Positions 19,737 through 63,445 are shown, counted from the first letter of the stretch. The stretch: DNA of 64,000 nucleotides from an uncultured virus (IMG/VR IMGVR_UViG_3300025141_013938) (IMGVR_UViG_3300025141_013938); one strand, 5' to 3'. Numbers and translations are program-made. Notes: generated by a model not told the origin, from the letters alone.

Positions 19737-19756
19737 ATAAAATATCGGTGATTTAA

Positions 19757-21805: not shown

Positions 21806-21810
21806 AAATA

Positions 21811-23266: not shown

Positions 23267-23273
23267 GTAAATT

Positions 23274-23726: not shown

Positions 23727-23798
23727 TCTAAATCGATCTTAATAATTTCGTTAATTTATTACTTGCAAGATATGTATGATTAAGACCCGGAGTTTAAT

Positions 23799-24586: not shown

Positions 24587-24651
24587 AGAATTATAGTCTT
24601 ATTTTCTATATTGAGAATATTTAAAACATAGGATATCGGAGGTACTAGGCC

Positions 24652-25146: not shown

Positions 25147-25805
25147 TGACCAAAAAGCTTTACTATAATCCATCAACTGCTAATGCAGATCTCCGAAAGG
25201 GGATGGGCTATGGTAAGGCTCAAAAGACGCCAAGCCTTGGCACTGGTCTCGGATCAGAGGCTATCATGGGATCATCAGAGACAGGGATATATTCAGAACC
25301 ATCATCTCGTGAATTTTTTGATGATGATCCTCAGGAATTTGGATTTGATGACGATGATATTGATAATTTCGTGTCCAGGGTGAACCTATATTATATGAGA
25401 GCGGATCCAAGTCACTGGCCCAGAGCCGATCGTGGGTCACTTGCTCACTCTAGTAATATATGGGAAGCCACTGATGATGGATTAGTTCCAGCTATTAAGC
25501 CCCAGAGACTTCCCAAAGCTAGAAAGGGAATTTCACCATTTTCTTCTAAGACATTATATCCAAAGGGATTTAATGGTCCGCCACTAGGTACAGGAAATGC
25601 AGGTCAGGCATTTAAAACTACAGGACCATTTATAGGAATAGGAACACAGTATGGAACATCTAGGGCTCCTATTAATACTGTCGATGACGGAATTGAAGCA
25701 GGAAGCTATCTAGATATCCTAGATATGGATCCTTCTGAGAGAGAGATTTTAAAGCAAAGAATAAAGATGCTAAAAATCCTTAACACACTAGACGAAGGAT
25801 TTTAG
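25143..25805 (+). CDS. Hypothetical head-module protein
   Basis: GTGA overlap with the upstream stop; Gly/Pro rich. Confidence 0.6.
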   Translation: MMTKKLYYNPSTANADLRKGMGYGKAQKTPSLGTGLGSEAIMGSSETGIYSEPSSREFFDDDPQEFGFDDDDIDNFVSRVNLYYMRADPSHWPRADRGSLAHSSNIWEATDDGLVPAIKPQRLPKARKGISPFSSKTLYPKGFNGPPLGTGNAGQAFKTTGPFIGIGTQYGTSRAPINTVDDGIEAGSYLDILDMDPSEREILKQRIKMLKILNTLDEGF

Positions 25806-25863
25806 CACCAGAGGGTGGTAAATTCATATTTATCTTTATATTTAATAACAATGAGGGTTACAC

Positions 25864-27417: not shown

Positions 27418-27461
27418 ACAACTGCACAAAACCATTAATATCAAAATAGGAGATAATAAAA

Positions 27462-29426
27462 ATGGCAAAATCATTCACACTTAATCAGCTGACTGAGGGT
27501 ATCCGACAGAGAAATGTTGGTACCGAGGGACGTCGGCTGGTAGAGAAGTGGTCACGGACAGGACTTCTTAGAGGCCTAGACGACCATAAACGAGAGACAA
27601 TGTCTCGCATGCTAGAGAACCAGGCAGCTCAGCTCTTACGAGAGCAGAACAGCCTTGGTACGGGAGCCGGCGCTGGAACCACTTCAGGTGACATCCGTGG
27701 CTTCACTAACATCGCATTCCCGATCGTTCGCCGAGTATTCGGTGGCCTCATTTCTAATGAGCTAGTATCGATCCAGCCGATGAGCCTTCCATCCGGTCTG
27801 CTCTTCTACCTGGACTACACATACGGTACACGAATTGGCGGCGACGCTGACCTTCAGACAGGTGACGCTGGCTCTGCTGACGCGAGTACCTACGCTGTAG
27901 GTCAGTCGATCTATAATCGGCCGACTGGCAAGGGTGTTCAGTCAGGATCACTAGCGACAGGCGGTCAGTATGACCTCGCCGGTCACACATACACTAGAGT
28001 ACACCAGACTGTTGGTGGGATGGCTGCGGCTAACTCGCGGCTAACTCTTCTTAACTGGGGAGCGTGGCAAGGTAGCTCAGCAATGACGACAAATGCTGTC
28101 ATGGCAGCCACTGGGTCTGACGCAAAGAACGCACAGTTCGATCCGCAGCTCTTGTCTGTACTTGAGGGTAACTTAAGTGCTGCTGGCCAGCCTGGCAACA
28201 ATGCAGGAACCTTCCAGTTCTTGGTATTTGATGTCACTGATATGAGTTCACTTCAGATAGATCTGACGTCTGTCAAGGACATATCGCTCTTCAGTGACAA
28301 CGACGGTGCCGGTACGTCTATCAGCCAGACAGGAATGGCTGTTTGGAATGACAGCTGGCAGGGAGGAAAGAATATCCTCAACCTCAGGCGTCTCAATCAG
28401 CTGGGAACATTTGCTAACGGTGCTTTCACAGCTGATCCGATGGTCACGACAGCAACTACTAACGCTGCTCTGCTCTGTGTCGTGTCAGGCGTGCTACCAA
28501 CTGCATTCCGAGCTGTAAACGGTCACGGCCTCACAGGTTCCTATGCACTTGATCCGACACTGAGTGTTGACGGGGCTCAGGGTGACGTTCTCACGATCCC
28601 GACATTTGAGTCGAACTTCGCGACATCTCCTTCTCCTCGCATCCCTGAGATCGACATCAAGATCGAATCGATCGCGGTCACCGCAGTGACACGCAAGCTC
28701 AGAGCTCGCTGGTCACCAGAACTCGCACAGGATCTTAACGCTTACCACAGCCTTGACGCTGAGGTAGAGCTCACACAGATCCTCTCTGAGCAGATCGCTC
28801 TTGAGATCGACCGTGAGATCCTTAATGATCTCCTCACGCAGGCTAAGGGAGCTAACTACTTCTGGTCACGCATGCCAGGTAAGTTCGTTAATAAGACTAA
28901 CGGTGCTGAGCAGAAGCTCGCTGACTCGCTATCTGCCGGACCTCGGTTCACAGGTACAGTCCGTGAGTGGTATGAGACTCTCGTAGAGACAATCATAGAC
29001 GTCGCTAATGAGATCCACCGCAAGACCCTCAGAGGTTCCGCAAACTTCGTGGTTTGCTCTCCAGAGGTCGCTACGGTATTCGAGGCATCAGTTCTCTATA
29101 AGCCGAACTACAGCCTTGACGGACAGGGACAGGTCGGACAGCCCTTCACACTAGGTGCTGCCCCGATCGGATCGCTCAGTAATCGTTTCACGGTCTACAA
29201 GGATCCTTACTTCCCACGGAACAAGATCCTCGTCGGATACAAGGGCGGAAGCTACCTGGAGACAGGATATGTATACGCACCTTACGTGCCGTTGATCGTC
29301 ACACCTACTATCTTCGCACCGGAAGACTTCACACCCCGCAAGGGCGTGATGACCCGGTACGGTAAGAAGATGGTTCGCGCTGACTTCTACGGAACGGTAA
29401 CGGTCCTGGATCTAAACGTCATCTAA
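27462..29426 (+). CDS. Major capsid protein (T4 gp23-like)
   Basis: VSIQPMSLPSGLLFYL, TRKLRARWSPELAQDLNAYHSLDAEVELTQILSEQIALEIDREI, GYVYAPYVPL, FTPRKGVMTRYG. Confidence 0.95.
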   Translation: MAKSFTLNQLTEGIRQRNVGTEGRRLVEKWSRTGLLRGLDDHKRETMSRMLENQAAQLLREQNSLGTGAGAGTTSGDIRGFTNIAFPIVRRVFGGLISNELVSIQPMSLPSGLLFYLDYTYGTRIGGDADLQTGDAGSADASTYAVGQSIYNRPTGKGVQSGSLATGGQYDLAGHTYTRVHQTVGGMAAANSRLTLLNWGAWQGSSAMTTNAVMAATGSDAKNAQFDPQLLSVLEGNLSAAGQPGNNAGTFQFLVFDVTDMSSLQIDLTSVKDISLFSDNDGAGTSISQTGMAVWNDSWQGGKNILNLRRLNQLGTFANGAFTADPMVTTATTNAALLCVVSGVLPTAFRAVNGHGLTGSYALDPTLSVDGAQGDVLTIPTFESNFATSPSPRIPEIDIKIESIAVTAVTRKLRARWSPELAQDLNAYHSLDAEVELTQILSEQIALEIDREILNDLLTQAKGANYFWSRMPGKFVNKTNGAEQKLADSLSAGPRFTGTVREWYETLVETIIDVANEIHRKTLRGSANFVVCSPEVATVFEASVLYKPNYSLDGQGQVGQPFTLGAAPIGSLSNRFTVYKDPYFPRNKILVGYKGGSYLETGYVYAPYVPLIVTPTIFAPEDFTPRKGVMTRYGKKMVRADFYGTVTVLDLNVI

Positions 29427-29522: not shown

Positions 29523-30239
29523 ATGATAATAAGCCACAGTAGAAAATTTATATTTTTCAAGCCGTTAAAGACAGCTGGGACAAGCGTAGAGGTTCTCTTA
29601 AGGGACATGTGTGGTCCAACTGATATAATCACACCAGTAGCACCAGATGAAGTAAAGAAAGGCTTCAATAGCCAGAATAACATTAATGAGGATGGAATAT
29701 TTAAGTTTCACTCTCACACTTGGCCCGACTTGCTTTTTGAAAAAACTGAGAGTACTTGGAATGATTATCACAAGATATCTATGGTGAGAAATCCTTGGGA
29801 CATGTGTGTATCTTATTACTGGTGGACAATGTCTAGAAATAAGAATTCTCAGCTAATAATAAAGGATAGTGACATAGATAGCCTAATAGAAGAAAAATTT
29901 AGATTATTTTTAGAAACCAAGTGCTTCTATGATGAGCACATTCTTAAAAACGTAGATAATTTTTATAAGAGTCCAGTATCGTGGCTATCAGACATATCTC
30001 TGAATTTTATGAGTGAAGAGATAGACACGTATATCAGATTTGAATCTTTGCAAAGTGATTTTAATAATGTGGTGTGTGACCTAGGTGGGAGACCTGTAGA
30101 GCTACCTAGGTTCAAGTCTAATAAAAGAAATCTGAGCTATCACTACTCTAAGTATTATTGCGAACATACAGCTGATTTAGTAAAAAATTATTTTTCTGAG
30201 TATTCAGATAGTCTAGGATATAGCTTTTTAGAGATATAG
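29523..30239 (+). CDS. Sulfotransferase family protein (Sulfotransfer_2-like)
   Basis: KFIFFKPLKTAGTSV (5'-PSB loop), VRNPWD..VSYY (3'-PB motif), IRFESLQSDF. Confidence 0.82.
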   Translation: MIISHSRKFIFFKPLKTAGTSVEVLLRDMCGPTDIITPVAPDEVKKGFNSQNNINEDGIFKFHSHTWPDLLFEKTESTWNDYHKISMVRNPWDMCVSYYWWTMSRNKNSQLIIKDSDIDSLIEEKFRLFLETKCFYDEHILKNVDNFYKSPVSWLSDISLNFMSEEIDTYIRFESLQSDFNNVVCDLGGRPVELPRFKSNKRNLSYHYSKYYCEHTADLVKNYFSEYSDSLGYSFLEI

Positions 30240-33469: not shown

Positions 33470-36400
33470 ATGGCTGAGCAGACCTTTAAATCACCTGGGT
33501 TTTTTGAGCGTGAAATCGACCTTTCGCAGAGGGAGACAGAGATCGTAGGTATTCCTGCGGGAGTTGCTGGAACATCTCAACTAGGCCCCGCATTTGTACC
33601 GGTTACTGTTGGTTCATTTGCAGATTTTGAAAGAAGATTTGGAACACTTGACCCAAAGATGTTTGGACCCTATGCTGTCAGAGAATTTCTTAGGTATAGA
33701 ACAGCCCTAACATACGTACGTGTATTAGGAGCAGGTTCTAATGAAACAACCGCAGATATAGAAAATACTAATATAAACGGAATCGTTAAAAGTGCTGGAT
33801 TTAAAATACTCCCCACAGCACTACCTGCTGGTGCTGTTGGAGGTGCAAATGGTGTAGTTCAGTTCATAGCTGCGAAACACTACGTGTCAGCTTCAACTGA
33901 GGGCGTGGGATATCCAATCTTCTCAGATAATAACAGCTATAATGTTGCTAGTGGAGATGGATTTATTAACCTCGTTAGAGGGATGCTATTTACGCCCACA
34001 GGAACACGTTTTCAGGTCATGGATTATAGCTCATCCTATAATGAACTCAGCCCCAGATTGCACGGATCATCAAGCAATTCAGTACCAAGCTCAGAGGGAT
34101 TATTTAAGCTAATAGTCTCTTCCTCTGCAGGTGCAGGATTTTATAAAGATGATAACTCACCTGGAATTAGAGTCTTTACAGCATCTCTAAATCCAGCTTC
34201 TGATGCGTATATTGGAAATATATTAAATACTGATCCAGAAAGATTCCAAAAAGATCAGCACGTCTTATATGCTCACTTCCCAGTTGAGGACCTGGTAGCA
34301 GGAGTTGGAGCAAGCTCTGGCAGGCCAGTCGTCGCACTTGTGTCAGGAAGTAATAAGGACTCTTCAGCTTCTGCTCTATCTACGACATTCTTAAATAGAT
34401 TTGGAAGACTTGATACAAGATATAGCGCAGCAAAATCAACTAGCTTCATATCTCAACCATACGGACAAGCAGAATATGATCTTTTCCACTTTGAAACTAT
34501 ATCTGATGGCCTGGTTGTAAATGAAAGCTTTAAGGTCTCTATCTCTAATATTAGAAAGAGTACTAATCCAAGAGATCCGTATGGAACATTCTCTGTTCTA
34601 GTTAGAGCATTTAATGATACAGATACTAATCCAGCAGTTTTGGAGCAATATCCGCTCTGTACACTTAATCCTAATGATGATGACTTTGTTGCTAAAAAGA
34701 TTGGAGACTTCAAGGCATTTTATAATTTTGACGCCGAGGATGAAGATGAGAGAAAGATGATCGTAAGGGGGAAATATCCTAATAGGTCAACTAGAGTCAG
34801 AATTGTAATGAGTGAGATATTTCAAAATGGAGACGTTCCATCTAGTGCTCTGCCTTTCGGATTCAGAGGACTGCCATTACTGAAGACTTCAGATACACTA
34901 ACAGATCAATCTACCACACCTATAGTTGGAACATATGATAGCCCAGGTGGACCCACATCCAGAAGGCTTAGTAATGTGACTGGATCTGGCACCCCAAATA
35001 GAGCTGCGATGGGATTTGTGTCTGCTCTCAGTGGATCAATCCTACCGCCTGTTCCATTTAGATTTAAGGTGACACGAGGAAATATATCTACAACCCAGCC
35101 CTATGTCGGTGCCCCTGGTGACGATGAAAGGGTAGACAGTAGATATTACTGGGGCGTAAAGTATACTAGAGTAGCTAGAAGTACCGAACTTTCTAATTCG
35201 ATTCTTAATCCAAATGCGTCTGATGCGATCAATGATCTCCTCAGAAACTACTCTAAGATGTTAGGAATTGTAAAGCTAGACTCTCTTGTCACAGGAAGCG
35301 GAGCAGATGAGTTTAATAATAATAAGTTCACACTTGCAAGGGTTGCTCTCTCTAATAGGATACAGGATAATAGCAGCGGAGACCCAGATCTCTCAGTTAC
35401 AGCTAATGGATCGATAACTGGATCTGCAAAGGACCACATATTAGAAACAGCATACATTAGAAACGGAAGTCCTGACAGTGCAAATTACACAGTTGTCGAT
35501 GGCAGTAGGGCTCGTCGCCTAACATTTGCCTCACTTCTATCTCTAACTTCTTCAGTCTATTTTAATAGATTTCATGAGTATACAAAATTCACAAATATGC
35601 TATACGGCGGATTTGATGGTGTGAATATTCTTGATAGAGATATGGCACAGCTAGATGATAGATCTACTTCCACTGACACAGGTGGAAAGGCAGCATCAGG
35701 TGTACCAGCAGTGGGAACATCTATGGATATCGGTCTGAGTTCTGAAAATAATTTTGGAGCTGGTCCGCTGAACGGTATAGTTGCATCTTATAGAACAGCT
35801 GGCAAGATCTTAACAGATCCTATGGTGTCTAGGGTGAACATCCTAGCAATACCAGGGATAAGAGACGGATCACTGTCTAACTACATATTTGACTTACTTG
35901 ATGACTACGGCAAGGCGATATATCTCCTAGATATTCCAAACTACGACAGCGACGGAGTTAGGATTTTTAATCGGTCGAAAAAACCGGCAGTTTCTAAGAC
36001 AGCAGAGGGCTTTGACTCAAGAGCAGTTAATAGCAACTACTCAGCAACATATTTCCCTGATGTATCAATTCAAGATGACATCAATAATCAGCCCGTACAG
36101 GTTCCGTCATCAGTTGCTGCAATAGGTGCACTAGCATTTAATGATAGTATTTCATACCCATGGTTTGCTCCTGCAGGATTTAACAGAGGCGCTCTAGATA
36201 ATGTGGTAAATGTAGATGTGAGACTCAATCAGCGTGATAGAGATGACCTATATGAGGTAAGAATAAATCCCATAGCTACATTCCCACAGGCAGGATTCGT
36301 GATTTTTGGACAAAAGACGCTCCAGATTGCAAGAAGTGCTCTAGACAGAGTCAATGTCAGAAGAATGCTTCTCGAGGTCAAGAGAATTGTTGTTGATATT

Positions 36401-36658
36401 GCAAATAGGATAGTCTTTGAGCAGAACACGCCAGAGACTAGAGCAAGATTTGTCTCACAGGTAACTCCTCTGCTAGCAACAGTTCAGAGTCAGCAAGGAA
36501 TTGATCAGTTTAAGGTTGTGATGGACTCTAGCAATAACACTCAGGAAGATATTGAAAATAATGTTCTGAATGGAAGAATTGTTGTTGTACCCACAAGAGC
36601 AGTTGAATTTGTCGCTATTGACTTTATTATTACCAATGCTGGTGTAAGTTTTGAATAA
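33470..36658 (+). CDS. Tail sheath protein 1
   Basis: FKSPGFFEREID, GPAFVP, PWFAPAGFNRG, INPIATF, FGQKTL, LDRVNVRRMLL, FEQN, PTRAVEFVAIDF. Confidence 0.93.
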   Translation: MAEQTFKSPGFFEREIDLSQRETEIVGIPAGVAGTSQLGPAFVPVTVGSFADFERRFGTLDPKMFGPYAVREFLRYRTALTYVRVLGAGSNETTADIENTNINGIVKSAGFKILPTALPAGAVGGANGVVQFIAAKHYVSASTEGVGYPIFSDNNSYNVASGDGFINLVRGMLFTPTGTRFQVMDYSSSYNELSPRLHGSSSNSVPSSEGLFKLIVSSSAGAGFYKDDNSPGIRVFTASLNPASDAYIGNILNTDPERFQKDQHVLYAHFPVEDLVAGVGASSGRPVVALVSGSNKDSSASALSTTFLNRFGRLDTRYSAAKSTSFISQPYGQAEYDLFHFETISDGLVVNESFKVSISNIRKSTNPRDPYGTFSVLVRAFNDTDTNPAVLEQYPLCTLNPNDDDFVAKKIGDFKAFYNFDAEDEDERKMIVRGKYPNRSTRVRIVMSEIFQNGDVPSSALPFGFRGLPLLKTSDTLTDQSTTPIVGTYDSPGGPTSRRLSNVTGSGTPNRAAMGFVSALSGSILPPVPFRFKVTRGNISTTQPYVGAPGDDERVDSRYYWGVKYTRVARSTELSNSILNPNASDAINDLLRNYSKMLGIVKLDSLVTGSGADEFNNNKFTLARVALSNRIQDNSSGDPDLSVTANGSITGSAKDHILETAYIRNGSPDSANYTVVDGSRARRLTFASLLSLTSSVYFNRFHEYTKFTNMLYGGFDGVNILDRDMAQLDDRSTSTDTGGKAASGVPAVGTSMDIGLSSENNFGAGPLNGIVASYRTAGKILTDPMVSRVNILAIPGIRDGSLSNYIFDLLDDYGKAIYLLDIPNYDSDGVRIFNRSKKPAVSKTAEGFDSRAVNSNYSATYFPDVSIQDDINNQPVQVPSSVAAIGALAFNDSISYPWFAPAGFNRGALDNVVNVDVRLNQRDRDDLYEVRINPIATFPQAGFVIFGQKTLQIARSALDRVNVRRMLLEVKRIVVDIANRIVFEQNTPETRARFVSQVTPLLATVQSQQGIDQFKVVMDSSNNTQEDIENNVLNGRIVVVPTRAVEFVAIDFIITNAGVSFE

Positions 36659-36690
36659 TGGATAATTAATGATATCGGAGAATAAAATAA

Positions 36691-39600
36691 ATGGCTGACA
36701 TACTCTTTGGAAGTGCTGGAACAACAGCAACAGAAATAGACTTATCTTTTCCTACTCCAGCAGCCCCTATCGGTGTCCCGGCTGGTGTCATAGGAACTGC
36801 TGATGAGGGACCTGCGTTTGTTCCCATCACAGTTGCAAGTTACCCAAATTTTGCAGCTGTATTTGGTGACAGTGATGGTGAAAAGTTTGGACCGCTAGCC
36901 GTAGATGCATATCTCAAGTCAGCACAGTCATTGTCTTATATCAGACTGCTAGGAATTGGCAACGGTAAGCGTAGATCCACCACCACAGGAAAGGTGACAA
37001 ATGCAGGATTCGTTGCCGGAGCAGAGATCGTTCAGGATAATGGCACTGTTGCAAGAAATAAATACGGATCTTCTGATGGGAATTCGCTAGGAAGGACATA
37101 CTTCTTAGGCTGTTGGATGTCACAGTCAGCTGGAAGCACAGTCTTCAGTGAGGCGGGCCTCCAGGAAACTAAGGCAACAGCCCTTGGTAGTCCACCAGCC
37201 GTCCCTATCATCAGGGGTGTGCTATTAGCAGCTTCTGGAGTTACCCTATCTCTTTCTGGAAACTTTATCGCTCAGGGCAGTGCAGCTCCCAGTAATACGA
37301 CTGAGTATAGGTCAGGAGACGCAAATATACAGGGTGGCATGACAGGATCTGTTCACCTTTCATCACAAGAATTTGTGATGTTACTTAATGGTCACTCTAC
37401 AGCGATCGCTGGCTCAGGAAAGAATGTTATCACAGCATCTTTTGACATGAAAAAGGATGGCTATTTTGGAAATCAATTTAATACTGATCCAACAGCACTA
37501 GAGCGAACAGGTCACTTACTCTACGCAAGGTATGACATCCACCCAGCTCTCGCTGTCGTCACAGGAACAGGCGTGCTGAGTAACACAGTAGACTTCAGCA
37601 AGACAGGAAATCCCACTAAGTGGAATGAGTGTGCATTCCTGGCCAGTGGATCTGATAGTAGAAATTCCTCTTCGACGACACAGCCTAACTATGAGTCATT
37701 TGAGGATAGATTTACATCACCGTCAGCTCCATTCATGATATCACAGGACTTCGGCGGAACGAAGTATGACCTATTTAGGATTCACGCAATTGCTGACGGA
37801 GAATATTCTAATACAAGGTTTAAGGTGTCTATAGAGAATATTAAGCCACGTCGATCAGCAACTAATAAGTTTGGAACATTTGATATAGTGGTCCGAAAAT
37901 TTAGCGACAGTGACTATGAAAAGGTTATTCTAGAGTCATATCGTGGGATTAATCTTGATCCATCTAGTGACAAGTATGTGGCAAGGGCAATTGGAGATAA
38001 GAAGGTATACTTTGACTTTGATCAGTCACCAGCTGCACAGAAGATAGTCGTAGACGGAGATCACCCTGTCATGTCTAACTTCATAAGAGTTGAGATGTCA
38101 ACAGCGATGAAGGCCGGACAGGTTCCAAAGACAGCACTTCCAATAGGTCACAGAGGATATAATCACCTCGTGACATCAGGAAGTGGTCCTATCCAAACAA
38201 CAGGAACTGCACAGTTCAACACAGCAATAACTAATAATCCGATCAAGCACATAGTAGAAATGCCAATTCCTTACAGAAGAAATGTGGCTGTTGGACAAGC
38301 ACCAAATAAAAGTGCAAAGGCAATTTTTTACTGGGGTGCTAACTTGACTGTAAGTGATCATCCTATTACCGAACCAAATCAAGATGGACTCCTTGATCAG
38401 TCATTTTTCAGCTATGCGAAATACTTTCCAAACTTCGCACCGTCATCTTTAAATGTGTCTGTGGGAAATAATCCTGGAAAGGCAGACTCAGGTGGTGTGA
38501 TATTTGACTGTGATAGGTTCAATAATAATATTTTCACACTAGAGCGCCTCCAGGTGAGAACAGGATCAACAGTTGAGGGCGGTGTCAACATAGCAGACAC
38601 AAAAGAGTGGGCTAGCGCGTCTTACGTGAGAAATGGACAGATATCTGCTAATGAGACTCTCAAGACCCGTGCATTCAAGGTAGATGACCTGAAGTCATCA
38701 GGAAATAGAAGATTTGCCAAGTTCACATTCTTCCTGCAGGGTGGGTTTGACGGAAGCAATACTTTTGATAGGGACAAGGCTAGATTCCTAAATGCTGCTA
38801 TAAAGAGAGAGATGGACGACGCAACTAGCCAAGGAGGAACGTCAGGTCCAACAGTAGCCGCATATAGAAAGGCACTAGATATCATGGGAACTAAGTCAGA
38901 TGTTGATATCAAGCTACTCGCAGTCCCTGGAGCTAGACACAGCGCTGTGACAGACTATGCAATTGACACAGTAGAGAATAGATTTGACGCGATGTATGTG
39001 ATGGACATCGAGGAGCGGGATGAGGTAAACACAGTCGTGACATCCTCTGTTCAAATTCCAAGTGTTGGAAACACAGTCACGTCCTTTAAGAATAGAGGAC
39101 TAAATTCATCCTTCGCCGCCGCTTACTTCCCTGATATGGTTGTCAGAGATCCGACGACATCAACTAATGTCAAGGTCCCGCCCTCAGTCTCTGTTCTAGG
39201 GGCATTGTCACTCAATGACAGCATAGGATATCCGTGGTTCGCGCCAGCAGGGTACTCGAGAGGAGCCCTAGATGACGTGATACTATCGACACTTCCGCTA
39301 AATAAGGCTAATCTTGATGAGATCTATGATGCATCAATTAATCCGATAACTAAGTTCCCTGGAACTGGAATGATGGTCTGGGGGCAGAAGACACTGCTAG
39401 CAGAGGCATCAGCCTTAGACAGGGTAAATGTGAGACGCCTGCTTATTAATATAAGAAGGTCTGTCAGAAATATAGCAAGATTAATGCTATTTGAACCCAA
39501 TAGACAGGAGACTCTAGATAAATTTAATGCACTTGTCACACCGATCTTACAGAGCATCCAGGAAAAGAGTGGTGTGGATAGGTATAAGGTTATTATTGAT

Positions 39601-39735
39601 GCAACAACTACGACACAGGCAGATGTTGAAAATAACACTCTACGAGGTAAGATATTCATACAGCCCACTAGAACGGCTGAGTTCGTATCTCTAGACTTTG
39701 TAGTCACAAATGCAGGTAACTTCTTCGGAGCTTAG
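36691..39735 (+). CDS. Tail sheath protein 2
   Basis: GPAFVP, PWFAPAGYSRG, INPITKF, WGQKTL, LDRVNVRRLL, FEPN, PTRTAEFVSLDF. Confidence 0.93.
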   Translation: MADILFGSAGTTATEIDLSFPTPAAPIGVPAGVIGTADEGPAFVPITVASYPNFAAVFGDSDGEKFGPLAVDAYLKSAQSLSYIRLLGIGNGKRRSTTTGKVTNAGFVAGAEIVQDNGTVARNKYGSSDGNSLGRTYFLGCWMSQSAGSTVFSEAGLQETKATALGSPPAVPIIRGVLLAASGVTLSLSGNFIAQGSAAPSNTTEYRSGDANIQGGMTGSVHLSSQEFVMLLNGHSTAIAGSGKNVITASFDMKKDGYFGNQFNTDPTALERTGHLLYARYDIHPALAVVTGTGVLSNTVDFSKTGNPTKWNECAFLASGSDSRNSSSTTQPNYESFEDRFTSPSAPFMISQDFGGTKYDLFRIHAIADGEYSNTRFKVSIENIKPRRSATNKFGTFDIVVRKFSDSDYEKVILESYRGINLDPSSDKYVARAIGDKKVYFDFDQSPAAQKIVVDGDHPVMSNFIRVEMSTAMKAGQVPKTALPIGHRGYNHLVTSGSGPIQTTGTAQFNTAITNNPIKHIVEMPIPYRRNVAVGQAPNKSAKAIFYWGANLTVSDHPITEPNQDGLLDQSFFSYAKYFPNFAPSSLNVSVGNNPGKADSGGVIFDCDRFNNNIFTLERLQVRTGSTVEGGVNIADTKEWASASYVRNGQISANETLKTRAFKVDDLKSSGNRRFAKFTFFLQGGFDGSNTFDRDKARFLNAAIKREMDDATSQGGTSGPTVAAYRKALDIMGTKSDVDIKLLAVPGARHSAVTDYAIDTVENRFDAMYVMDIEERDEVNTVVTSSVQIPSVGNTVTSFKNRGLNSSFAAAYFPDMVVRDPTTSTNVKVPPSVSVLGALSLNDSIGYPWFAPAGYSRGALDDVILSTLPLNKANLDEIYDASINPITKFPGTGMMVWGQKTLLAEASALDRVNVRRLLINIRRSVRNIARLMLFEPNRQETLDKFNALVTPILQSIQEKSGVDRYKVIIDATTTTQADVENNTLRGKIFIQPTRTAEFVSLDFVVTNAGNFFGA

Positions 39736-48133: not shown

Positions 48134-51100
48134 ATGAACGGTCTTAGTAATACTCAGTCTAATTCAGTTAACAGACTATCTGCAGCTATCAGGCTATTAA
48201 ATCAGTACTATGCAGCTCTCGGCAGGGGTGACATACTTGAAATCATTAATAAGGCAGCACTGGGATCTGGGCAAGACATAGATGCTCTCATTGCTGCTGA
48301 CCTCGGTGCTTCACTCGCAGCAGCGGGGCAGGGAGTTAACGCAGAGATCATTGATAACCTTCTCTATATGCTACTCGACACGTCAGAGGGAGCGTACTTC
48401 ACGAAAGATCTCTTGTCTGTGACTCGCCTGCTTGAAAAGTTTAAGGTAAATGAGGGCGGTAATCAGTATGCCGGTGTCGATGATTTCGTCCAGTGTGTCT
48501 ATGAGCCAGGACTATGGACAGAGCTAGATAGCTTAAAGCCACTAGTTAAGACAGCTGCTTATAATCCTCTTGAGTGCGCAGACCCTGATGAACCCGCCGG
48601 GGAGATGATCCTAGATAGAGCAGAAGACAAAGCAGAGATACACAAGATGATCAGGTCTATCGCAGAGGATTATGCCTCTGGTGATGGGGAGGAGGGTAAA
48701 TTTGCAGAAGACAGATCAGGGAGATTCGTCAACAGCGCACCCAAGGATCCTAACAGGTTTATGTCCCCATCACTCTCAGCGTGGTTATTTCCAAACCTCA
48801 GGATTGGTCCGCCCACAAGGAATACAGCTGCAGTCGGCTTATTTGCAAATGCAATTCCAACAGTTGAGATGTCACTCAGCGTTCCTTATATCAACATGTT
48901 CTTTGTCGCCGCAGTCCCTCCATTGCTCGGAGAGAGGACAAAGCAGCTATCACTATTGAGATTCCTTGGGATGAATGGCAATGACGGCAGTCTTCCGGGA
49001 CCCGGGCATGATAAGATCGGAATGAGGTCTGCACTCAGGGTCGCAGCTGTGGGTGGCATGCCCGGACAGATAATCACAGACGCGACAGTCGATGCATCGA
49101 GCCAGAGTGGATTCGATCAGTGGGGAGAGTCTGTATCAACAGCAGGAATGGAGCTATTCACGTCTCCACAGACTCTAGTTAATGCTGACATAAACAGCAC
49201 TGGGAAGGGCGAAGATGGCGGCATATTTCAAAACTTCTCAGGAATGTCTGGAGGTGTGCTAGATCCCATGCAGCCTCTTCTCACACTAGACACAATCAGC
49301 ATCAGCGTGAGAGGACTAGGTCAGGCACTGCTAGCTAATAGGAATGCAACAATAAGCTTCACTCTACATGATCGGTCGAGGATGTCAGACATAGCACCGC
49401 TGATATCAGCTGACTTATTCGGCACGACATATATCATGCTAGAATACGGATGGATGCATCCAAATGACTCGATGTGGTCCACACCTCTCGGCAAGCGTGG
49501 TGCTAGTGAGAGCTCTAATGTATACGGAACTCTGATCAATTCGATGAGGACACGAGGCATCTTTAACATCATGTCATCTAACTTTACAATTGGAAATGAC
49601 GGTCAGGTTAAGGTGAGGATGGAGCTAGCATCTCGAGGCGGCGCAGATGCTAGGTCACTTCCGATAGCTATTGGTAACGTCGTTCCAGCAGCACCTCTCA
49701 AGAGCATGATCACGACTCACCTAGCAAGGCTATTTGACTCATATAACGGGAATGATGACGCATCTAGAGAGATAAGACAGAGAATAAGTGTGTCACTTGA
49801 CGCAGCTAACTCAAATAGCTCAGTTATCCCTAGAAGTCTGTGGACAGAGTATCTCGCCTTGCTAAATTCTGGCAAGCAGGGAGTGCCGGCTGTGGATGAT
49901 CTATACTCTATCATTAAGCTTCTCGTCGGCGACCCAACAGACCCAAATGACATAGGCCTAGTTGCAAAAAGCAATCAAACACTTATGAAAGAGCTCAGGG
50001 CACGTTCTCTAGCACTAGTTGCCCAGCCTGACGCCTTTCGTAGCACATTACCTCCTCCCTTCCTTGAGGCCGTCATGGCTGCAATCTTAGCTGAAGAAGC
50101 ACACGGCGGAGGAATGATTTCACTAGGGATGATCTTTCTAGCATTTGTAGGAAGGCCTCTTGCAGCGTCAGGAAGATATGATGAGGTGCAGATGATGTTC
50201 TATAGATTTAATGCTAGAGCAGGAGAGGCACGCAATTATGACACCATCGCTAACTTCCTAGTTGACTATGCACACTTTCACATGAAGCTAATGGAGTATG
50301 CGGAGTCTTTTCCGGGAATGTCAGTTGAGGGTTTCATTAACATGATCAATGGTGAGTTTGTCAATGATCCGACAGATCTAAACTATGGATTTGAGATGGC
50401 AACCCTGTATAGTAAGCTCAGCGACCTAGAAAAGCGGGACATGGAAGGAGCAACTGAGGCAGAGCAGCGTGAGCACCAGTCCCAGGTACACAGTGTGAGT
50501 AATAAGATCAGCGATGCTCTCATTAGGATGTACAGAGAGGGAGGAGAGCCTGTATTTATCATCCCACGTGTCGTGGCATACTTCGAGACACTTCCAGCAT
50601 ACTCAGTTCAGGACGACGATACATTCGTCTTAGACCCTGATAAGTCTATACTCAGGATCCACATATTTGACTCAAATTCAACACCTCACGATGACCAGAG
50701 ATTCATATTAGCTGCCATGAATGACGCCGATATGGCCATAAAGATAAAGGGATCAACATCTGCAGCCGGCCCCAGCTACCGGCACCTGTATGAAGGCGTC
50801 CGGCCTAACGGCTGTGACACGTCGGTCAGTGACTGCCTAGAGAACAGAAATTCACTAAGGCAATCTACAGACTCTGCTGACAACAGGACAGAGTATATGG
50901 TATACACTGCTAACATATCTAACGCAGAGATAAAGGACATACTCAAGAGCTCTGTTCCCAGTATGACATTTGGGTCACAGTTCAGCGCGATGCAGTCTGT
51001 ATCTCTCAGCTCTAACACCTCAGGTGCTGTTAATAACGTGCTACTACTGAATGCAATATCACAAAGAAATCAGGTGCAGCCTGGCGCAAGTAATGATCTC

Positions 51101-51412
51101 GAGGAGGTGAAGGTGATACCAGCATCAGCTAGGATCACTCTCCTCGGCTGCCCACTAGTTGAGTACGGGCAGCAATTTTTTATTGACATGGGCACAGGCA
51201 CCACAGCAGATAACCTATACAGGGTCACAGGAATAACACATACGATAAGCGCAGGTAGGTTTGAGACATCACTTGACATGACATTTGTGTCAAATGGAAC
51301 GATGAATACATTCAGGGGTGTCCTCGCATCAGCACTCCCACGCCTCGGGGAGATATGTAGTGCAGGTGCGGGAGATGCCTGGGGGCACATCTCCACCGCT
51401 AACATCGGATAG
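48134..51412 (+). CDS. Baseplate hub protein (gp27/gpD-like, enlarged)
   Basis: IMLEYGW and C-terminal ITLLGCPLVEYGQQFFID...LYRVTGITHTISAGRFETSL; follows the LysM-like gene. Confidence 0.62.
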   Translation: MNGLSNTQSNSVNRLSAAIRLLNQYYAALGRGDILEIINKAALGSGQDIDALIAADLGASLAAAGQGVNAEIIDNLLYMLLDTSEGAYFTKDLLSVTRLLEKFKVNEGGNQYAGVDDFVQCVYEPGLWTELDSLKPLVKTAAYNPLECADPDEPAGEMILDRAEDKAEIHKMIRSIAEDYASGDGEEGKFAEDRSGRFVNSAPKDPNRFMSPSLSAWLFPNLRIGPPTRNTAAVGLFANAIPTVEMSLSVPYINMFFVAAVPPLLGERTKQLSLLRFLGMNGNDGSLPGPGHDKIGMRSALRVAAVGGMPGQIITDATVDASSQSGFDQWGESVSTAGMELFTSPQTLVNADINSTGKGEDGGIFQNFSGMSGGVLDPMQPLLTLDTISISVRGLGQALLANRNATISFTLHDRSRMSDIAPLISADLFGTTYIMLEYGWMHPNDSMWSTPLGKRGASESSNVYGTLINSMRTRGIFNIMSSNFTIGNDGQVKVRMELASRGGADARSLPIAIGNVVPAAPLKSMITTHLARLFDSYNGNDDASREIRQRISVSLDAANSNSSVIPRSLWTEYLALLNSGKQGVPAVDDLYSIIKLLVGDPTDPNDIGLVAKSNQTLMKELRARSLALVAQPDAFRSTLPPPFLEAVMAAILAEEAHGGGMISLGMIFLAFVGRPLAASGRYDEVQMMFYRFNARAGEARNYDTIANFLVDYAHFHMKLMEYAESFPGMSVEGFINMINGEFVNDPTDLNYGFEMATLYSKLSDLEKRDMEGATEAEQREHQSQVHSVSNKISDALIRMYREGGEPVFIIPRVVAYFETLPAYSVQDDDTFVLDPDKSILRIHIFDSNSTPHDDQRFILAAMNDADMAIKIKGSTSAAGPSYRHLYEGVRPNGCDTSVSDCLENRNSLRQSTDSADNRTEYMVYTANISNAEIKDILKSSVPSMTFGSQFSAMQSVSLSSNTSGAVNNVLLLNAISQRNQVQPGASNDLEEVKVIPASARITLLGCPLVEYGQQFFIDMGTGTTADNLYRVTGITHTISAGRFETSLDMTFVSNGTMNTFRGVLASALPRLGEICSAGAGDAWGHISTANIG

Positions 51413-51435
51413 CCCACAGCTAAAAATTCAATACA

Positions 51436-51457
51436 TGTAACTCACAGTCTGTATTAT
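51436..51457 (+). promoter_or_regulatory. Candidate promoter TGTAA-N11-TATTAT
   Basis: Same architecture as 29495-29516; GTG start 6 nt after the -10. Confidence 0.45.
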
Positions 51458-51463
51458 TAACAC

Positions 51464-52672
51464 GTGAAAGTCACGATACTGAACAGCACACTAGGAACAC
51501 CGAGGCACCTCGTGCATGACGGAACAGAATTCTCATGGGCGTCGAGCATTCCGAGTGACTCGTGGGTCTATCCTGGAGTCTCCGGTCACAGAGACCTGCT
51601 ACCTATAGCAGAGGCTCTCGGAGAGAAGATATCAGGATTTGAAGACACACCGCACGCAGTGGCCTGGGAGTCAATGACAAGGGGAAGGGATGTCAGGATA
51701 CCATGGATGCATGCCATCCCGCCCGATCAGTTTCAGAGATACCTCTCAGGCATCCTAGATCAGCTCTGGATGATCATCAGGACAGAGAATGACAGTTACT
51801 ATATGAATGAATTCGTGATCAACAGAGGGATGCTAGAGAGCCTCTGTCCGCCCATTGTCGATAAGCTTCTGATAGAGAATTTTTTGATAGACGCGACAGA
51901 TAAGTCCAGAGCAGACCTTCTAAAGTTTTTACCTGATGAAAGTGGACGTGCACCTCACTCGTCTTATACCCAGAGCAACACTGTCACGGGCCGCCTGACA
52001 GCCACGAGCGGACCTAATATCCTCACCCTGAAGAGGAAGTATAGAGGCATGATGAGATCTGAGTTCAAGAACGGATCTATCGTTCAGGCTGACATAGTGT
52101 CTCTTGAGCCCAGGATAGCTCTGTGCGTCGCACAAAAGACTCCACCTGAAGACATATATGACACTATCATGAATGACGTGCTCGGGGGAGAGGTCTCACG
52201 GTCGCAGGCTAAGATAGCAACACTCGGGTGCATATATGGAATGAGCCCATGGACGCTATCTAAGAAGCTCCCTGAGAGTCTAGATGCCAGAGATATATTA
52301 ATGAGAATTAGAGACTACTTCGACATACCACATCTAGAGAGGGGTCTAAAGAGAGAGTTCAGGGAAAAGGGCTTCATTGAAAATATCTATGGAAGAAGAG
52401 TTCCTGCCGGAGATGCACTAGTGAATCACTTTTTACAGTCCACAGGAGCAGATGCATCTCTCCTAGCATTTAGTATGCTTAAGAGCAAGTTAGATGACCT
52501 CAACGCGAGATTTAAACCTCTCTACATCATCCATGATGCGATCTTATTAGATCTAGATGCGTCAGCCCTAGCGTCTCTCAGAGAGATAACATCATCTGGT
52601 CTAGAGGTGCCAAAATTTAAACAAAGATTTCCTATAAAGATAGAATTTATAGGCGGAGATAAACATGAATGA
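51464..52672 (+). CDS. Short family A DNA polymerase (polymerase domain only)
   Basis: TVTGRL, PNIL, motif A ADIVSLEPRI, motif B RSQAKIATLGCIYG, NHFLQSTGAD, motif C IIHDAI. Confidence 0.85.
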   Translation: MKVTILNSTLGTPRHLVHDGTEFSWASSIPSDSWVYPGVSGHRDLLPIAEALGEKISGFEDTPHAVAWESMTRGRDVRIPWMHAIPPDQFQRYLSGILDQLWMIIRTENDSYYMNEFVINRGMLESLCPPIVDKLLIENFLIDATDKSRADLLKFLPDESGRAPHSSYTQSNTVTGRLTATSGPNILTLKRKYRGMMRSEFKNGSIVQADIVSLEPRIALCVAQKTPPEDIYDTIMNDVLGGEVSRSQAKIATLGCIYGMSPWTLSKKLPESLDARDILMRIRDYFDIPHLERGLKREFREKGFIENIYGRRVPAGDALVNHFLQSTGADASLLAFSMLKSKLDDLNARFKPLYIIHDAILLDLDASALASLREITSSGLEVPKFKQRFPIKIEFIGGDKHE

Positions 52673-53302: not shown

Positions 53303-54928
53303 ATGAGCAAAAGATTTAAACCAAGTCCAGTTAAGCCAGAAATGGGTGTGTGGTCCGGAAGAGGGATCGGCATTCCTGTTGTGGGAGCGATAGGCGGCGG
53401 AGATGACTATAAGCAGAAGATAGGTCGTGACAAGATACGGTGGGACCAGACAGGCTTCAAGGGTTCTCCTTCTCTGTCTGCTGACGCTACATACTCTGTA
53501 TACCTTGCAAGGGTCAATAAGGACTGGGATGAGGAATATGAGGCTGTAATGTTTCCCAGTCAAGAAGAGGACGATGTGAATATTTATGATATGGATGTCT
53601 CTGCCATAAGAAGCAGAAAGACTCCAAGGGATTTTAAAGTGAAGCATCCAAGAGCTCTCGGAATATCAGAACGTCACGTCTTTGACGAGAATGATGTCGT
53701 CGAGAATAGCCGATATCGTCTCACCCAGGTCACTGAGGGAATATTTACACAGATATTTGGAGATATAGCAGGAGACATAGGCGCAGCTGCTTTAGCAGCT
53801 GTACCACTCTTTGGAGTACCTGCTGCCGCTGGTCTCGCTGGCTGGAATATAAAACAGCTGAAAGATGACATGGATAATTCTGATGTCGCGATCACCGCAT
53901 TCTTAAAATCACCAAGTGATGACACAGTTGAGATGATGAATGATGAGCTAGATAGCATTACAGTTAACCTGATCGACCTCTTTCAGAGACTTCTCGAGTT
54001 AGTTCCAGATGCAGAGTGGCCGATCGGAGAGGCTGCCAGTGTGATGACATCAATAGTTAATAATCTTGTTAAGCTTAAAAGGGCTCTTCAGGTCACAGGA
54101 TTAGCCACACCAAAATTTACTCACATGCCGATCGGGGGCATAGGTCCGACAGGACCAGCCACATCGCTGGCAACAAAAACAGCTGCAAAGGCAAAAGTCG
54201 CTGGAATCATCACACCAATACTCAAGTTCTTCATGGGAATTCTCGACTCTGGAGCTGCACCAAGGGTATTTAGAGATAATAAAGGTGTGATACTTGGAGT
54301 TCCGCGCAGGATGATACTTCTAGCTGACCTCATAGATGACTATCACATTCAGGAAGACGCAGCAGCAGCAGTTGGACAGGAATTTGTTTATCAAAATAGA
54401 ATAATCCCTGAGGGGGGCTATAATTCTTATGACTATGTGAGATCTCCGATAAGATCAGGTCAGCAAGCTCCTCAACAACAAGCTTTTCGAGTTGAGGATC
54501 TAACTTTTTCAGATCCAGCTGCAGCAGTAGCTCACATTCAACGACAGCAACAACAAGGACAACAACTATCTTTAGAGGAAAGAACTATGAGAAAAGATAT
54601 GAAGAATCTAAGAAAATTCATAAGAGAGACAGTTAAGACAGCGCTAAGAGAGACATCTTATCCAGACTATCCCTCTATGCACCCTCCTAATCCCACAGGA
54701 TATCAGTTCAGAAATGTTCCTGTTATCGAACCAGAGTCTCAGCAGGTCGATAAATTTGAAACACTTGATAGCTATGATGACTTCTCTGTCTCATACACAG
54801 CTGATGGAGGAGTTGTCAACTACCAGGCGAGGAATAAGCTTAAGCTCGATGAGGAGAGACATCTCGCTCTGAGAAGGTTAATTCGACAAGATATCGCTGG
54901 GATTGTCAAAGAGTCAAAAAAAAAGTAG
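53303..54928 (+). CDS. Putative head-packaged/internal virion protein
   Basis: LRKFIRE and LRRLIRQ motifs, an Ala/Gly-rich hydrophobic segment and a Gln tract; ends at an A9 run. Confidence 0.55.
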   Translation: MSKRFKPSPVKPEMGVWSGRGIGIPVVGAIGGGDDYKQKIGRDKIRWDQTGFKGSPSLSADATYSVYLARVNKDWDEEYEAVMFPSQEEDDVNIYDMDVSAIRSRKTPRDFKVKHPRALGISERHVFDENDVVENSRYRLTQVTEGIFTQIFGDIAGDIGAAALAAVPLFGVPAAAGLAGWNIKQLKDDMDNSDVAITAFLKSPSDDTVEMMNDELDSITVNLIDLFQRLLELVPDAEWPIGEAASVMTSIVNNLVKLKRALQVTGLATPKFTHMPIGGIGPTGPATSLATKTAAKAKVAGIITPILKFFMGILDSGAAPRVFRDNKGVILGVPRRMILLADLIDDYHIQEDAAAAVGQEFVYQNRIIPEGGYNSYDYVRSPIRSGQQAPQQQAFRVEDLTFSDPAAAVAHIQRQQQQGQQLSLEERTMRKDMKNLRKFIRETVKTALRETSYPDYPSMHPPNPTGYQFRNVPVIEPESQQVDKFETLDSYDDFSVSYTADGGVVNYQARNKLKLDEERHLALRRLIRQDIAGIVKESKKK

Positions 54929-55998
54929 TAGCTGTTGGAGACAGTAATACTGTCGGAGTCGGCAACAACAATACGTCGTATATAAACCTTCTTGGTGACG
55001 ACATCGACGTCGGAAAGTTCGCCACAGGCGGTAAGGCCAGCTTTCAGCTAGGGGGAAAGCTGGCACAGGCCTTGCGAGGTAATCCAGACTATGTTGTAAT
55101 TTTTGTGGGAATTAATAATCCTATGTCTGAAAGAGGTTGCTTTGGCAAATTCCCACGAAAAGGCACTGGGTTCACAGAAGAGTCTTGGGTGGGTGATGTA
55201 ATTAATGACCTGAGGTCATATTATGCTAAAGTAAAAAACAGGGGACCACAGCTCGACCCGCCAAAGGAGATAAGGGTCATAGGAATTACTTTAGTTCCTG
55301 CTGTAGGGCGCTGGAGTAAAAAATATGATAAATGTCTAAAGAATGATCCATATGGGATAAAGTCAAGCAAGGGTGATGTCATAGATCTCGAAGATAAGGG
55401 TCAAAAGGATTGTTATCGATTACGATGTGATGCTTTAGAGGAGCGCGAGCCGGGAGTATTTACAGTCAAGCGTCCAGGTGAGGGACTCGAAAGACGTAAT
55501 CCGAGTATTCTTCTCGCGCAAACTAAAAGGGTTAACGATTGGATACGATCAAATGCTGACATAGTCATCGACGCTGCGTCAGCATTAAGTGATGAGAGTG
55601 GTATCTTACCAGCTTATGATAGTGGTGACGGCATTCACCTAAACAATGCTGCACACCAGTGGATCGCTAGAGAGATTAGTAGAATAGTTGGACCTACTGT
55701 GGCAATAGATGATGCTGTAGAAGACAATGATGATCCTGACGATATCGTGAGAGAGTCAAAAGAGGGCGCTGATCATCCTGGTAAGTCATGTGAGGAGTCT
55801 CATCCTGAGGTGTCACATGATGACTGGGTTGAAGACCAGGCTAATGAGGTCTCTGGTGCGGGAGGAATTGCTGGAGTTATCCTTCCACTTGGAATGTCTG
55901 CACCGTCACATGGAAGAAAGAGAAAGCCAGCTTGGCAGGCTGCAGGATCTGGATTCGCTCGGGCGACACCGGTCGGCGACATAAAGTGGAATAAATAA
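54919..55998 (+). CDS. SGNH/GDSL hydrolase domain in the -1 frame, without its own start codon
   Basis: KKVVAVGDSNT (block I), ATGG (II), FVGIN (III) and DGIHLN (V) in one frame. The ORF-track start at 55072 omits the catalytic Ser. Confidence 0.82.
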   Translation, partial: KKVVAVGDSNTVGVGNNNTSYINLLGDDIDVGKFATGGKASFQLGGKLAQALRGNPDYVVIFVGINNPMSERGCFGKFPRKGTGFTEESWVGDVINDLRSYYAKVKNRGPQLDPPKEIRVIGITLVPAVGRWSKKYDKCLKNDPYGIKSSKGDVIDLEDKGQKDCYRLRCDALEEREPGVFTVKRPGEGLERRNPSILLAQTKRVNDWIRSNADIVIDAASALSDESGILPAYDSGDGIHLNNAAHQWIAREISRIVGPTVAIDDAVEDNDDPDDIVRESKEGADHPGKSCEESHPEVSHDDWVEDQANEVSGAGGIAGVILPLGMSAPSHGRKRKPAWQAAGSGFARATPVGDIKWNK

Positions 55999-63039: not shown

Positions 63040-63061
63040 CATAGTTATGCTTAGAGGCAAC

Positions 63062-63445
63062 ATGGCATACTCAAAAAAGGTCCTAGATCATTTTAAAAAT
63101 CCCAAAAATATAGGATCTTTAGATAAAAATGATAAAAATGTAGGAACGGGAATTGTCGGAGCGCCTGAGTGCGGTGATGTAATGAAGCTACAAATTAGTG
63201 TAAAAGATTGTTGCATAGTTGATGCTAAATTTAAAACATTTGGATGCGGTTCAGCAATAGCTGCATCATCACTTGCAACAGAAATGATAAAAGGTCGTAC
63301 ATTACAAGAAGCATCAACTCTCAAAAATACAGAAATCGTTGATGAGCTCAGCCTCCCACCGGTGAAAATACACTGTTCTGTTCTAGCTGAAGAAGCTATC
63401 AAGTCAGCTATTGAGGACTACAGGAGCAAGAATGATGAAGGGTGA
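63062..63445 (+). CDS. iscU: Fe-S cluster scaffold IscU
   Basis: MAYSKKVLDHF.NP.N.G, APECGDVMKLQI, KTFGCGSAIA, LPPVKIHC. ATG 63062 has an AGAGG RBS and is preferred to 63047. Confidence 0.95.
   Translation: MAYSKKVLDHFKNPKNIGSLDKNDKNVGTGIVGAPECGDVMKLQISVKDCCIVDAKFKTFGCGSAIAASSLATEMIKGRTLQEASTLKNTEIVDELSLPPVKIHCSVLAEEAIKSAIEDYRSKNDEG

Follow-up and report, generated by a model that had tools for sequence, protein, structure and literature searches.

The locus described here lies in a 64,000-nucleotide (nt) stretch of DNA, referred to as the window, from an uncultured virus (IMG/VR IMGVR_UViG_3300025141_013938). It comprises a gene for a protein of 541 amino acids (aa), called gene X, whose open reading frame (ORF) ends shortly after a run of nine adenines (A9). 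Comparison with related loci indicates that this run is very probably a genuine recoding site, conserved in the family, from which two isoforms of the gene X protein result. Slippage of RNA polymerase on the run is moderately favoured as the main mechanism, and the combined interpretation, a real conserved site with two isoforms and polymerase slippage as the leading cause, is considered likely. Standard decoding would halt at a tandem stop TAG TAG and give the 541-aa core protein. A minority product would read on in the -1 frame to 898 aa and would consist of the core, an SGNH esterase, an acidic linker and a tail typical of the family. The tail was found out of frame behind an uninterrupted run of A9 to A12 in 35 of 41 assessable junctions, which argues that the recoding is real and old.

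Junction of gene X in the window

The features of the junction are listed in Table 1. By direct reading, the DNA around the end of gene X is ...GTC AAA GAG TCA AAA AAA AAG TAG TAG CTG TTG GAG ACA GT... The -1 frame is free of stops from 54853 to 55995, between an upstream TGA at 54850 and a stop codon at 55996-55998, and reads ...KKKVVAVGDSNTVG... across the junction, also spelled ...QRVKKKVVAVGDSNTVGVG... The junction peptide of the predicted long form is ...ESKKKVVAVGDS... The extension amounts to 357 codons without a start, which together with the 541-aa ORF results in the 898-aa long form. The end of the ORF, the A9 run, the heptamer, the open -1 frame, the stretch devoid of start codons and the inverted repeat had all been located at the same positions in a preceding sequence-only reading of this DNA.

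None of the codons ATG, GTG, TTG, CTG, ATT, ATC and ATA occurs in the -1 frame between the TGA at 54850 and the GDS motif of the SGNH nucleophile block. Because the SGNH domain begins four to six residues after the run, this block can be reached only by a change of frame within the run. Production of a free SGNH protein by internal initiation, at the TTG at 55072 or at an unusual start codon, would be in line with the listing of ORF 55072-55998 and with the truncated proteins P0103 (308 aa) and P0105 (260 aa) given by gene callers. However, a product starting at 55072 would lack blocks I and II including the nucleophile serine, no start codon of the seven types is present upstream of the GDS, and free-standing SGNH relatives begin with M-x-K-IVAVGDS, i.e., two to three residues before IVAVGDS, at the point where the run ends in the window. 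Internal initiation is regarded as barely credible.

The A9 run by itself is no more than expected by chance, and its significance comes only from the comparison with relatives. Five A8 words were counted in the window, compared to 4.35 expected, and the A9 run is the sole A/T run of at least nine in the 75-kb contig (G + C content 41.5%), which is about the expectation from base composition.

Table 1. Positions of the features of the gene X junction, counted from the first letter of the window.
Feature	Position	Strand	Basis
Zero-frame ORF, predicted short isoform, 541 aa, ending ...GIVKESKKK	53303..54928	+	ORF listing
A9 run, candidate slip site	54916..54924	+	direct reading; homologous A9-A12 runs in relatives
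In-phase (zero frame) heptamer A_AAA_AAG, candidate site of a ribosomal -1 shift	54919..54925	+	direct reading
SGNH/GDSL hydrolase domain, -1 frame	54925..55677	+	Pfam; alignment A4; AlphaFold2 (AF2) model; PDB matches
Tandem zero-frame stops TAG TAG closing the short form	54926..54931	+	direct reading
Inverted repeat GACAGT-AAT-ACTGTC, within the GDSNTV codons	54940..54954	+	direct reading; not unusual, not conserved
TTG, first ATG/GTG/TTG of the -1 frame	55072..55074	+	ORF listing (ORF 55072-55998)
Acidic linker with a ..HPGKSCEESHPEVSHDDW.. motif common to some relatives	55678..55809	+	
Conserved family tail, ..EVSGAGGIAGVILPLGMSAPSHGRKRKPAWQAAGSGFARATPVGDIKWNK followed by the stop codon	55810..55998	+	tblastn; alignment A3; hidden Markov model (HMM) of the tail

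Conservation of the junction among relatives

Relatives of gene X were collected by a word-indexed search, which returned 19 proteins of 484-547 aa, none of them fused, and by an exhaustive search, which returned 89 cluster representatives. The family occurs in uncultured marine phages. The resulting alignment (A1) shows the ending ...E-[SN]-K-K-K plus zero to three residues at almost every C-terminus. Among 102 family proteins from databases classified by HMM, 55 end at the K-rich site, 29 continue into an in-frame tail and 18 are fragments or others. The 29 proteins with an in-frame tail argue that the long form is a real protein, and roughly one in three family members includes the tail.

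At the DNA level, the loci L003-L078 were obtained by two scans of two collections. Together with the window, L001 and L002, they result in 51 distinct junctions after identical ones were merged. Nine of these run off the contig and for one the contig ends at the stop, leaving 41 junctions for assessment. The tail is in the -1 frame in 31 of them, including the window, in the +1 frame in four (L024, L039, L041 and L072) and in frame in six (L013, L025, L026, L057, L071 and L073). All 35 out-of-frame junctions carry an uninterrupted run (12 A9, 14 A10, seven A11 and two A12), located zero to nine codons before the zero-frame stop. The slippery site and the frame break, proposed for the window in the sequence-only reading, are thus kept in the homologs.

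The runs stand out from their surroundings, as only one other A/T run of at least nine was detected in the 195,475 nt of 33 out-of-frame loci. As a control, 19 tracts of KKK or longer elsewhere in the tails were inspected; all of them are interrupted at the DNA level, with a longest A run of eight and an AAA to AAG ratio of 37:34. For 11 of the 33 loci, a TAA formed at the start of the run means that the shifted frame becomes open within the run itself, so that the frame change must take place there. ATG, GTG and TTG are absent from the shifted frame before the tail core in 26 of the 33 loci.

The identity to the window core protein is 30-54% for most relatives. According to a maximum-likelihood tree built from 40 members of the family, the -1 state is distributed over branches whose length exceeds one change per site; no fewer than three changes are required to explain the +1 state, and one to three for the in-frame state. 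Among close relatives, the length of the run varies at a kept frame offset, either by substitution (A9 in L021 vs. A11 in L012, A10 in L063 vs. A11 in L075) or by a whole codon (A9 in L006 vs. A12 in L047). Since the offset is kept despite these changes, the out-of-frame state itself appears to be maintained. Identical junctions present on several contigs agree in run length, e.g., six loci with A11 and four loci with A9.

The conserved tail

The tail of 60-90 aa, which had been overlooked in the sequence-only reading, is presumably the ancestral target of the recoding. In the window it accounts for the final 60 or so residues of the extension. A tblastn search with the window tail retrieves the shifted-frame extensions of relatives, and in alignment A3 it is 47-54% identical to the tails of L003, L008, L027, L028 and L029, five of the closest. 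The order of motifs in this alignment is an acidic stretch, (D/E)E-x-S, G-x-x-G-x-x-x-P-[LM]-G, a basic or FGG segment and often a poly-basic end. With the tail HMM, a match at the junction was obtained in every matching locus and once in the window contig (E-value 2.6e-13). No further copies of the tail were found with this HMM in the 75-kb contig, and within the loci there was only a weak second match, inside the own ORF of L073. This conservation shows purifying selection on the tail as protein, and the tail is probably an interaction or localisation peptide.

In several lineages, a Cys/His motif of the form C..[DE]HPG[KQ][ST]C[EK]E.. is located just before the tail core. It is present as HPGKSCEESHPEVSH at 55780-55850 of the window and also in P0080, P0097, P0099 and P0062, and may form a metal-binding knuckle. 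P0062 is a 98-aa database fragment with 91% identity to the C-terminus of the core protein; it reads ESKKVV-TGEDESSEDIVRESKEG... in a single frame and has no SGNH domain.

In L041 (4275-5249), the tail follows an A10 run in the +1 frame and is itself followed by an extra domain of about 230 aa without a Pfam match. This domain is unrelated to the C-terminal domain of free-standing SGNH proteins (BLASTP E-value 0.96). L041 is a second case in which a domain was added to the putatively recoded extension.

Probable mechanism of the recoding

In the favoured mechanism, the host RNA polymerase would slip on the A9 run and incorporate one untemplated A in part of the mRNAs, which would bring the extension into frame; ribosomal -1 shifting at A_AAA_AAG may add to the long form. 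The long form would be the rarer of the two, with the esterase as its low-dose passenger.

Five lines of evidence favour slippage. Firstly, none of the 35 out-of-frame junctions has a run of seven or eight, though seven would suffice for the heptamer. The minimum of nine agrees with the efficient slippage of bacterial RNA polymerase at nine A/T and with the RNA:DNA hybrid of 9-10 bp, as given in passages of PMC5009743 and PMC1088944. Secondly, four lineages need the +1 frame, that is, one A fewer or two more; one of them, L072, shares tca aaa aaa aag with the window, yet its tail is in +1. Thirdly, the commonest layout, -1, needs one extra A, and this is the commonest slippage product in the description of Thermus dnaX in parts of PMC5009743. 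Fourthly, no downstream structure is conserved (0/34 loci). Finally, an upstream Shine-Dalgarno (SD)-like word is not conserved either (6/34 loci).

Stimulators were looked for as follows. The 70 nt 3' of the run in the window fold with -13.8 kcal/mol, compared to -12.5 +/- 2.5 kcal/mol for shuffled sequences (z-score -0.51), and 61 of 200 shuffles fold as well. Both the inverted repeat and an outer TGTTG/CAACA pair are part of the minimum-energy fold, and the hairpin begins 14 nt past the heptamer, compared to 5-9 nt for dnaX-type spacing. No unusual downstream fold (z < -2) was found in any of 34 loci (mean z -0.15), in a test that covers secondary structure without pseudoknots. On these grounds, a role of the hairpin as shift stimulator is not supported. 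Likewise, a 4-nt SD-like word in the 24 nt upstream was found in six of the 34 loci, at varying distances. The phase of the heptamer cannot discriminate between the mechanisms, as any A run of at least nine holds an in-phase A heptamer. The window and the 75-kb contig contain no tRNA genes, hence there is no phage tRNA-Lys to be weighed for the heptamer.

Several observations weigh against the interpretation given so far. According to the sections of PMC5009743 on ribosomal shifting, A_AAA_AAG shifts most readily of the heptamers tested in E. coli, in which both codons are decoded by a single tRNA-Lys. L001 and L002 show 100% identity to the window across 7,400 and 4,015 nt, respectively, and are maybe not independent of it. 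The in-frame relatives L026 and L071 also keep an A9 run at the homologous ...E-[ST]-K-K... site, so the run may serve for more than access to the tail, or may switch back and forth in the DNA itself. L004 carries an extra G in its tail (GGG vs. GG) compared to its near-twin L029, which is either an assembly error or a mutant. In the relatives represented by P0002/P0105 and by P0104, the presence of a run ahead of the SGNH domain is deduced from gene calls, and it is conservation that points to the recoding event itself.

Two side observations concern these loci. The layout of L026 and L071 resembles that of Thermus dnaX, where slippage would shorten the product. L004 (5380-5620) and L029 (3880-4120) are otherwise identical; the G breaks the tail frame of L004, and both have an A11 slip run.

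A purely ribosomal -1 frameshift at 54919-54925 in the style of E. coli dnaX was judged unlikely. The heptamer does stand in the zero-frame phase and 31 of the 35 out-of-frame relatives need the -1 frame, but the other four, including L072 with the codons of the window, need +1. Runs of seven or eight are missing from all 35, the stimulators are not conserved as described above, and in many relatives the heptamer ends in A, C or T instead of G. The sequence-only reading had proposed a -1 recoding that yields a short form and a form of about 900 aa. The recoding stood in view of the relatives (35/41), whereas a purely ribosomal mechanism is less likely than slippage, given the four +1 lineages, the lack of runs shorter than nine and the lack of a conserved stimulator.

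Assembled genotype and changes at the DNA level

The A9 run was assembled in the window, in L001 and in L002. Among the sequencing runs listed as containing the stretch, none was an RNA run. Four sequencing runs were compared, all as assembled contigs, in which minor variants are hidden. The A9 site is bridged without gaps in two further runs, by record 5 of X3 (53892-55328, no differences) and by record 20 of X5 (54888-55184, two other letters), and the listed pieces of X4 and X7 do not bridge the site.

These data bear on the possibility that the layout is an artefact, i.e., that a homopolymer error hides a true A10 and thus one continuous 898-aa gene, or that the downstream frame is dead. 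Homopolymer miscalls are common, and the single-base indel between L004 and L029 is an example of what may happen in assemblies. Such single-base differences, however, cannot account for 35 lineages from two collections with an out-of-frame layout. The A9 run was also found in the contigs of X3 and X5 in addition to the window, L001 and L002, and the 55 database proteins end at the K-rich site. Decay is contradicted by the conservation of the tail and of four SGNH blocks and by 357 codons free of stops. Artefact or decay was rated as highly improbable.

Homopolymers of 9-12 are prone to replication slippage, and a DNA-level phase variation could produce a subpopulation of genomes with an in-frame tail. 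In-frame relatives with an A9 run exist (L026, L071), and the P0062 fragment reads through ESKKVV... in one frame. Against this stands that 35 of 41 lineages have an out-of-frame tail in their assembled consensus, that copies of the same junction agree in run length, and that close relatives differ by substitutions or 3-nt steps and not by single-base indels. No indels were reported in the contigs of the compared runs, though contigs hide minor variants. Overall, phase variation appears improbable.

The SGNH domain in the extension

A complete SGNH hydrolase that supplies the GDS block in the -1 frame, as claimed in the sequence-only reading, could be verified by a PF13472 match starting four to six residues after the run (E-value 9.5e-16, 59.2 bits vs. 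a cut-off of 32.9) and by a match to PF00657 (32.1 bits vs. 23.6). Blocks I (AVGDS), II (GGKAS), III (GINNP) and V (DGIH) are intact in the window. In alignment A4, D238 and H241 are invariant and G38, G65 and N67 nearly so. The AF2 model has a predicted local distance difference test score (pLDDT) of about 85-95 over residues 1-260, with the first beta-strand starting at the slip site and the tail predicted to be disordered. A structure search in the PDB resulted in 59 matching chains at E <= 0.001, and all 37 among the matches listed are of the SGNH/GDSL type; matches to PDB sequence profiles were obtained too. Thioesterases, carbohydrate esterases and polymer esterases are all represented among the nearest structures, which therefore do not point to a particular substrate.

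The domain appears to be a recent, lineage-specific insertion between slip site and tail, because the nearest relatives of the window in the tree, L003, L027 and L028 (core identity of at most 54%), have tail-only extensions of 66-71 residues without SGNH. SGNH together with a tail was found in two database relatives, P0105, which shares a 15-kb contig with the 73%-identical core protein P0002, and P0104. Viral contigs were searched with P0062, P0105, P0107 and alignment A4 for the DNA of the closest SGNH-bearing relatives, which led back to the contigs of the window, to loci with a tail alone or to no match at all, and a search of genome contigs for the DNA of SGNH-bearing relatives gave no match.

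The closest free-standing relatives of the SGNH domain, P0109 and P0113 among them, have either a hydrophobic, probably membrane-anchoring end or, in P0107-P0111, a conserved C-terminal domain of about 300 aa that belongs to no family.

As a tentative idea, to which a low probability is assigned, the slip-dependent extension could be a slot for low-dose cargo, in which the tail targets the rare isoform and lineages insert domains, SGNH in the window and about 230 aa in L041. If this were true, cargo enzymes would make up a small and constant share of an abundant protein of the replication block, together with which they would be delivered, and RNA polymerase slippage would set both the dose and the destination of accessory enzymes in T4-like phages of marine origin.

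Core protein and genome context

The source is an uncultured marine phage, a T4-like myovirus as indicated by a gp17-type terminase, a gp20 portal, a gp21-type prohead protease, a gp23 capsid protein, two tail-sheath paralogs, a tube protein, gp15 and a baseplate hub. Gene X is located in a replication block with genes for a family-A polymerase, an HD protein, a gp32-like single-stranded DNA-binding protein, a RecA/UvsX-like protein, a flap endonuclease (FEN), a DnaB-like helicase and a ribonucleotide reductase. The gene order PolA-HD (or RNase T)-X-gp32-RecA-FEN was found in five of five relatives by Pfam and in 14 of 14 by ORF sizes, with X directly upstream of the gp32-like gene. This fixed place suggests a role of gene X in replication or recombination.

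The site therefore lies outside the usual tail-chaperone context, as had been noted from the sequence. The further proposal of a head-packaged protein or capsid cargo found no support, since the core protein has no Pfam or PHROG match, the gene is part of the PolA-HD-X-gp32-RecA-FEN block in the window and in five of five relatives, and the head genes are located far away at 18111-29426. The [ILV]-x-E before the K run resembles the motif of the T4 prohead protease, and is a lead only.

No match to cultured phages was found in 50,697 phage records, either with blastn in distant mode for 53303-55998 or with tblastn for the 541-aa protein. The window protein and 18 in-frame relatives gave no Pfam or PHROG match at the curated cut-off. 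In an AF2 model of the core, built with a 60-sequence alignment (mean pLDDT 64.4), the N-terminus is predicted to be disordered and contains very conserved short motifs, residues of about 160-370 form a helical bundle modelled with confidence, and a beta-hairpin and a helix follow at the C-terminus. Foldseek searches of this fold against PDB and BFVD returned no matches at E <= 0.001, and the best score in the ESM Atlas was 0.78, without a family. With regard to transmembrane helices, the Kyte-Doolittle maxima over 19 residues are 1.1-1.8 in 12 family members, which is borderline and inconsistent.

A short gene X of 240-260 aa that has the N- and C-terminal modules only occurs in L018, L011, L017 and L058. 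In L018, the central helical module is encoded on its own, by a 506-aa ORF that follows closely downstream of the tail (L018:3986-4702 and L018:5010-6527).

Further features of the phage genome were observed. The family-A polymerase is apparently split (48134-52672) into a 1,092-aa ORF without a Pfam match and a 402-aa ORF with the C-terminal polymerase part only, a two-ORF layout that is also present in relatives. The adjacent tail-sheath paralogs (33470-39735) have 1,062 and 1,014 aa, with sheath domains only in the C-terminal third, and the gp23-type capsid protein (27462-29426) has an N-terminal extension of about 380 aa. A sulfotransferase-like PHROG match (29523-30239) follows the capsid gene, between head and neck genes. 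A gene for a NifU-like Fe-S scaffold (63047-63445, Pfam E-value 2.6e-50) adjoins the ribonucleotide reductase gene.

Comparison with known recoding systems

The recoding mechanism is already known, and the gene family is undescribed: a full-text literature search gave no description of the gene X family or of poly-A recoding in marine T4-like phages. New are the family itself, the depth of its conservation with coexisting -1, +1 and in-frame layouts, and the capture of a whole enzyme domain into the recoded segment. Gene callers split the locus into a 541-aa protein and a 308-aa "esterase" without nucleophile, and miss the tails of relatives. The real products are thus absent from protein databases because they are split, truncated or missed in part.

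The family would represent a deeply conserved case of poly-A recoding in phages, spread over dozens of lineages and located outside virion-assembly genes. With its -1 and +1 layouts and no run shorter than nine, it offers a natural experiment on the mechanism. The lineage of the window further suggests that an entire enzyme domain can become part of a segment accessible through recoding alone, so that its expression would be tied to a rare event.

Slippage at an A9 run in the Thermus thermophilus gene dnaX gives mixed mRNAs and two protein lengths (tau/gamma) with no need for an RNA stimulator, as described in parts of PMC1088944 and PMC5009743. Like this gene, gene X carries the A9 run in its coding sequence and is located among replication genes. 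In Thermus, however, the long form is the standard product and slippage leads to the short one, whereas slippage is needed for the long form here (35/41), and the protein families are unrelated.

The dnaX site of E. coli works with an SD-like element upstream of it and a stem-loop downstream. No conserved stimulators are present in gene X, the shift in E. coli gives the shorter product, and four relatives of gene X need +1. The in-phase A_AAA_AAG is identical in both (PMC5009743, passages on E. coli dnaX).

In Shigella flexneri mxiE and spa13, a single untemplated base at a homopolymer joins two overlapping ORFs, with a longer product that is minor and functional (PMC1088944, in part); for spa13 it makes up 25-30% of the product according to a passage of PMC5009743. 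In contrast to these genes of cellular type III secretion with T/U runs, gene X is a phage gene with an A run and has a whole enzyme domain in its extension. For orfA-orfB fusions of insertion sequence (IS) elements at A9 runs, a part of PMC1088944 (Baranov et al. 2005) names the same overlapping-ORF organisation plus a conserved A9 in non-identical homologs as the comparative criterion for functional slippage. The gene X family shows this combination. Unlike the IS elements, it is not part of a mobile element, is far more diverged and has both -1 and +1 layouts.

The T7 capsid proteins 10A and 10B are a short and an extended form made at a set ratio. The lambda G/GT proteins, a major short and a minor C-terminally extended phage protein at a set ratio (PMC5009743, in part), are likewise comparable to the two predicted forms of gene X. 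Both of these systems use ribosomal -1 shifting and serve virion assembly, whereas gene X is part of a replication/recombination block and its run is at least nine. In Citrobacter rodentium tssM, a poly-A tract is reported to interrupt the gene, and transcriptional frameshifting to give two length variants, as proposed for gene X; there, the rescue of an interrupted gene of cellular secretion is concerned, whereas the layout of gene X is conserved across a deep family.

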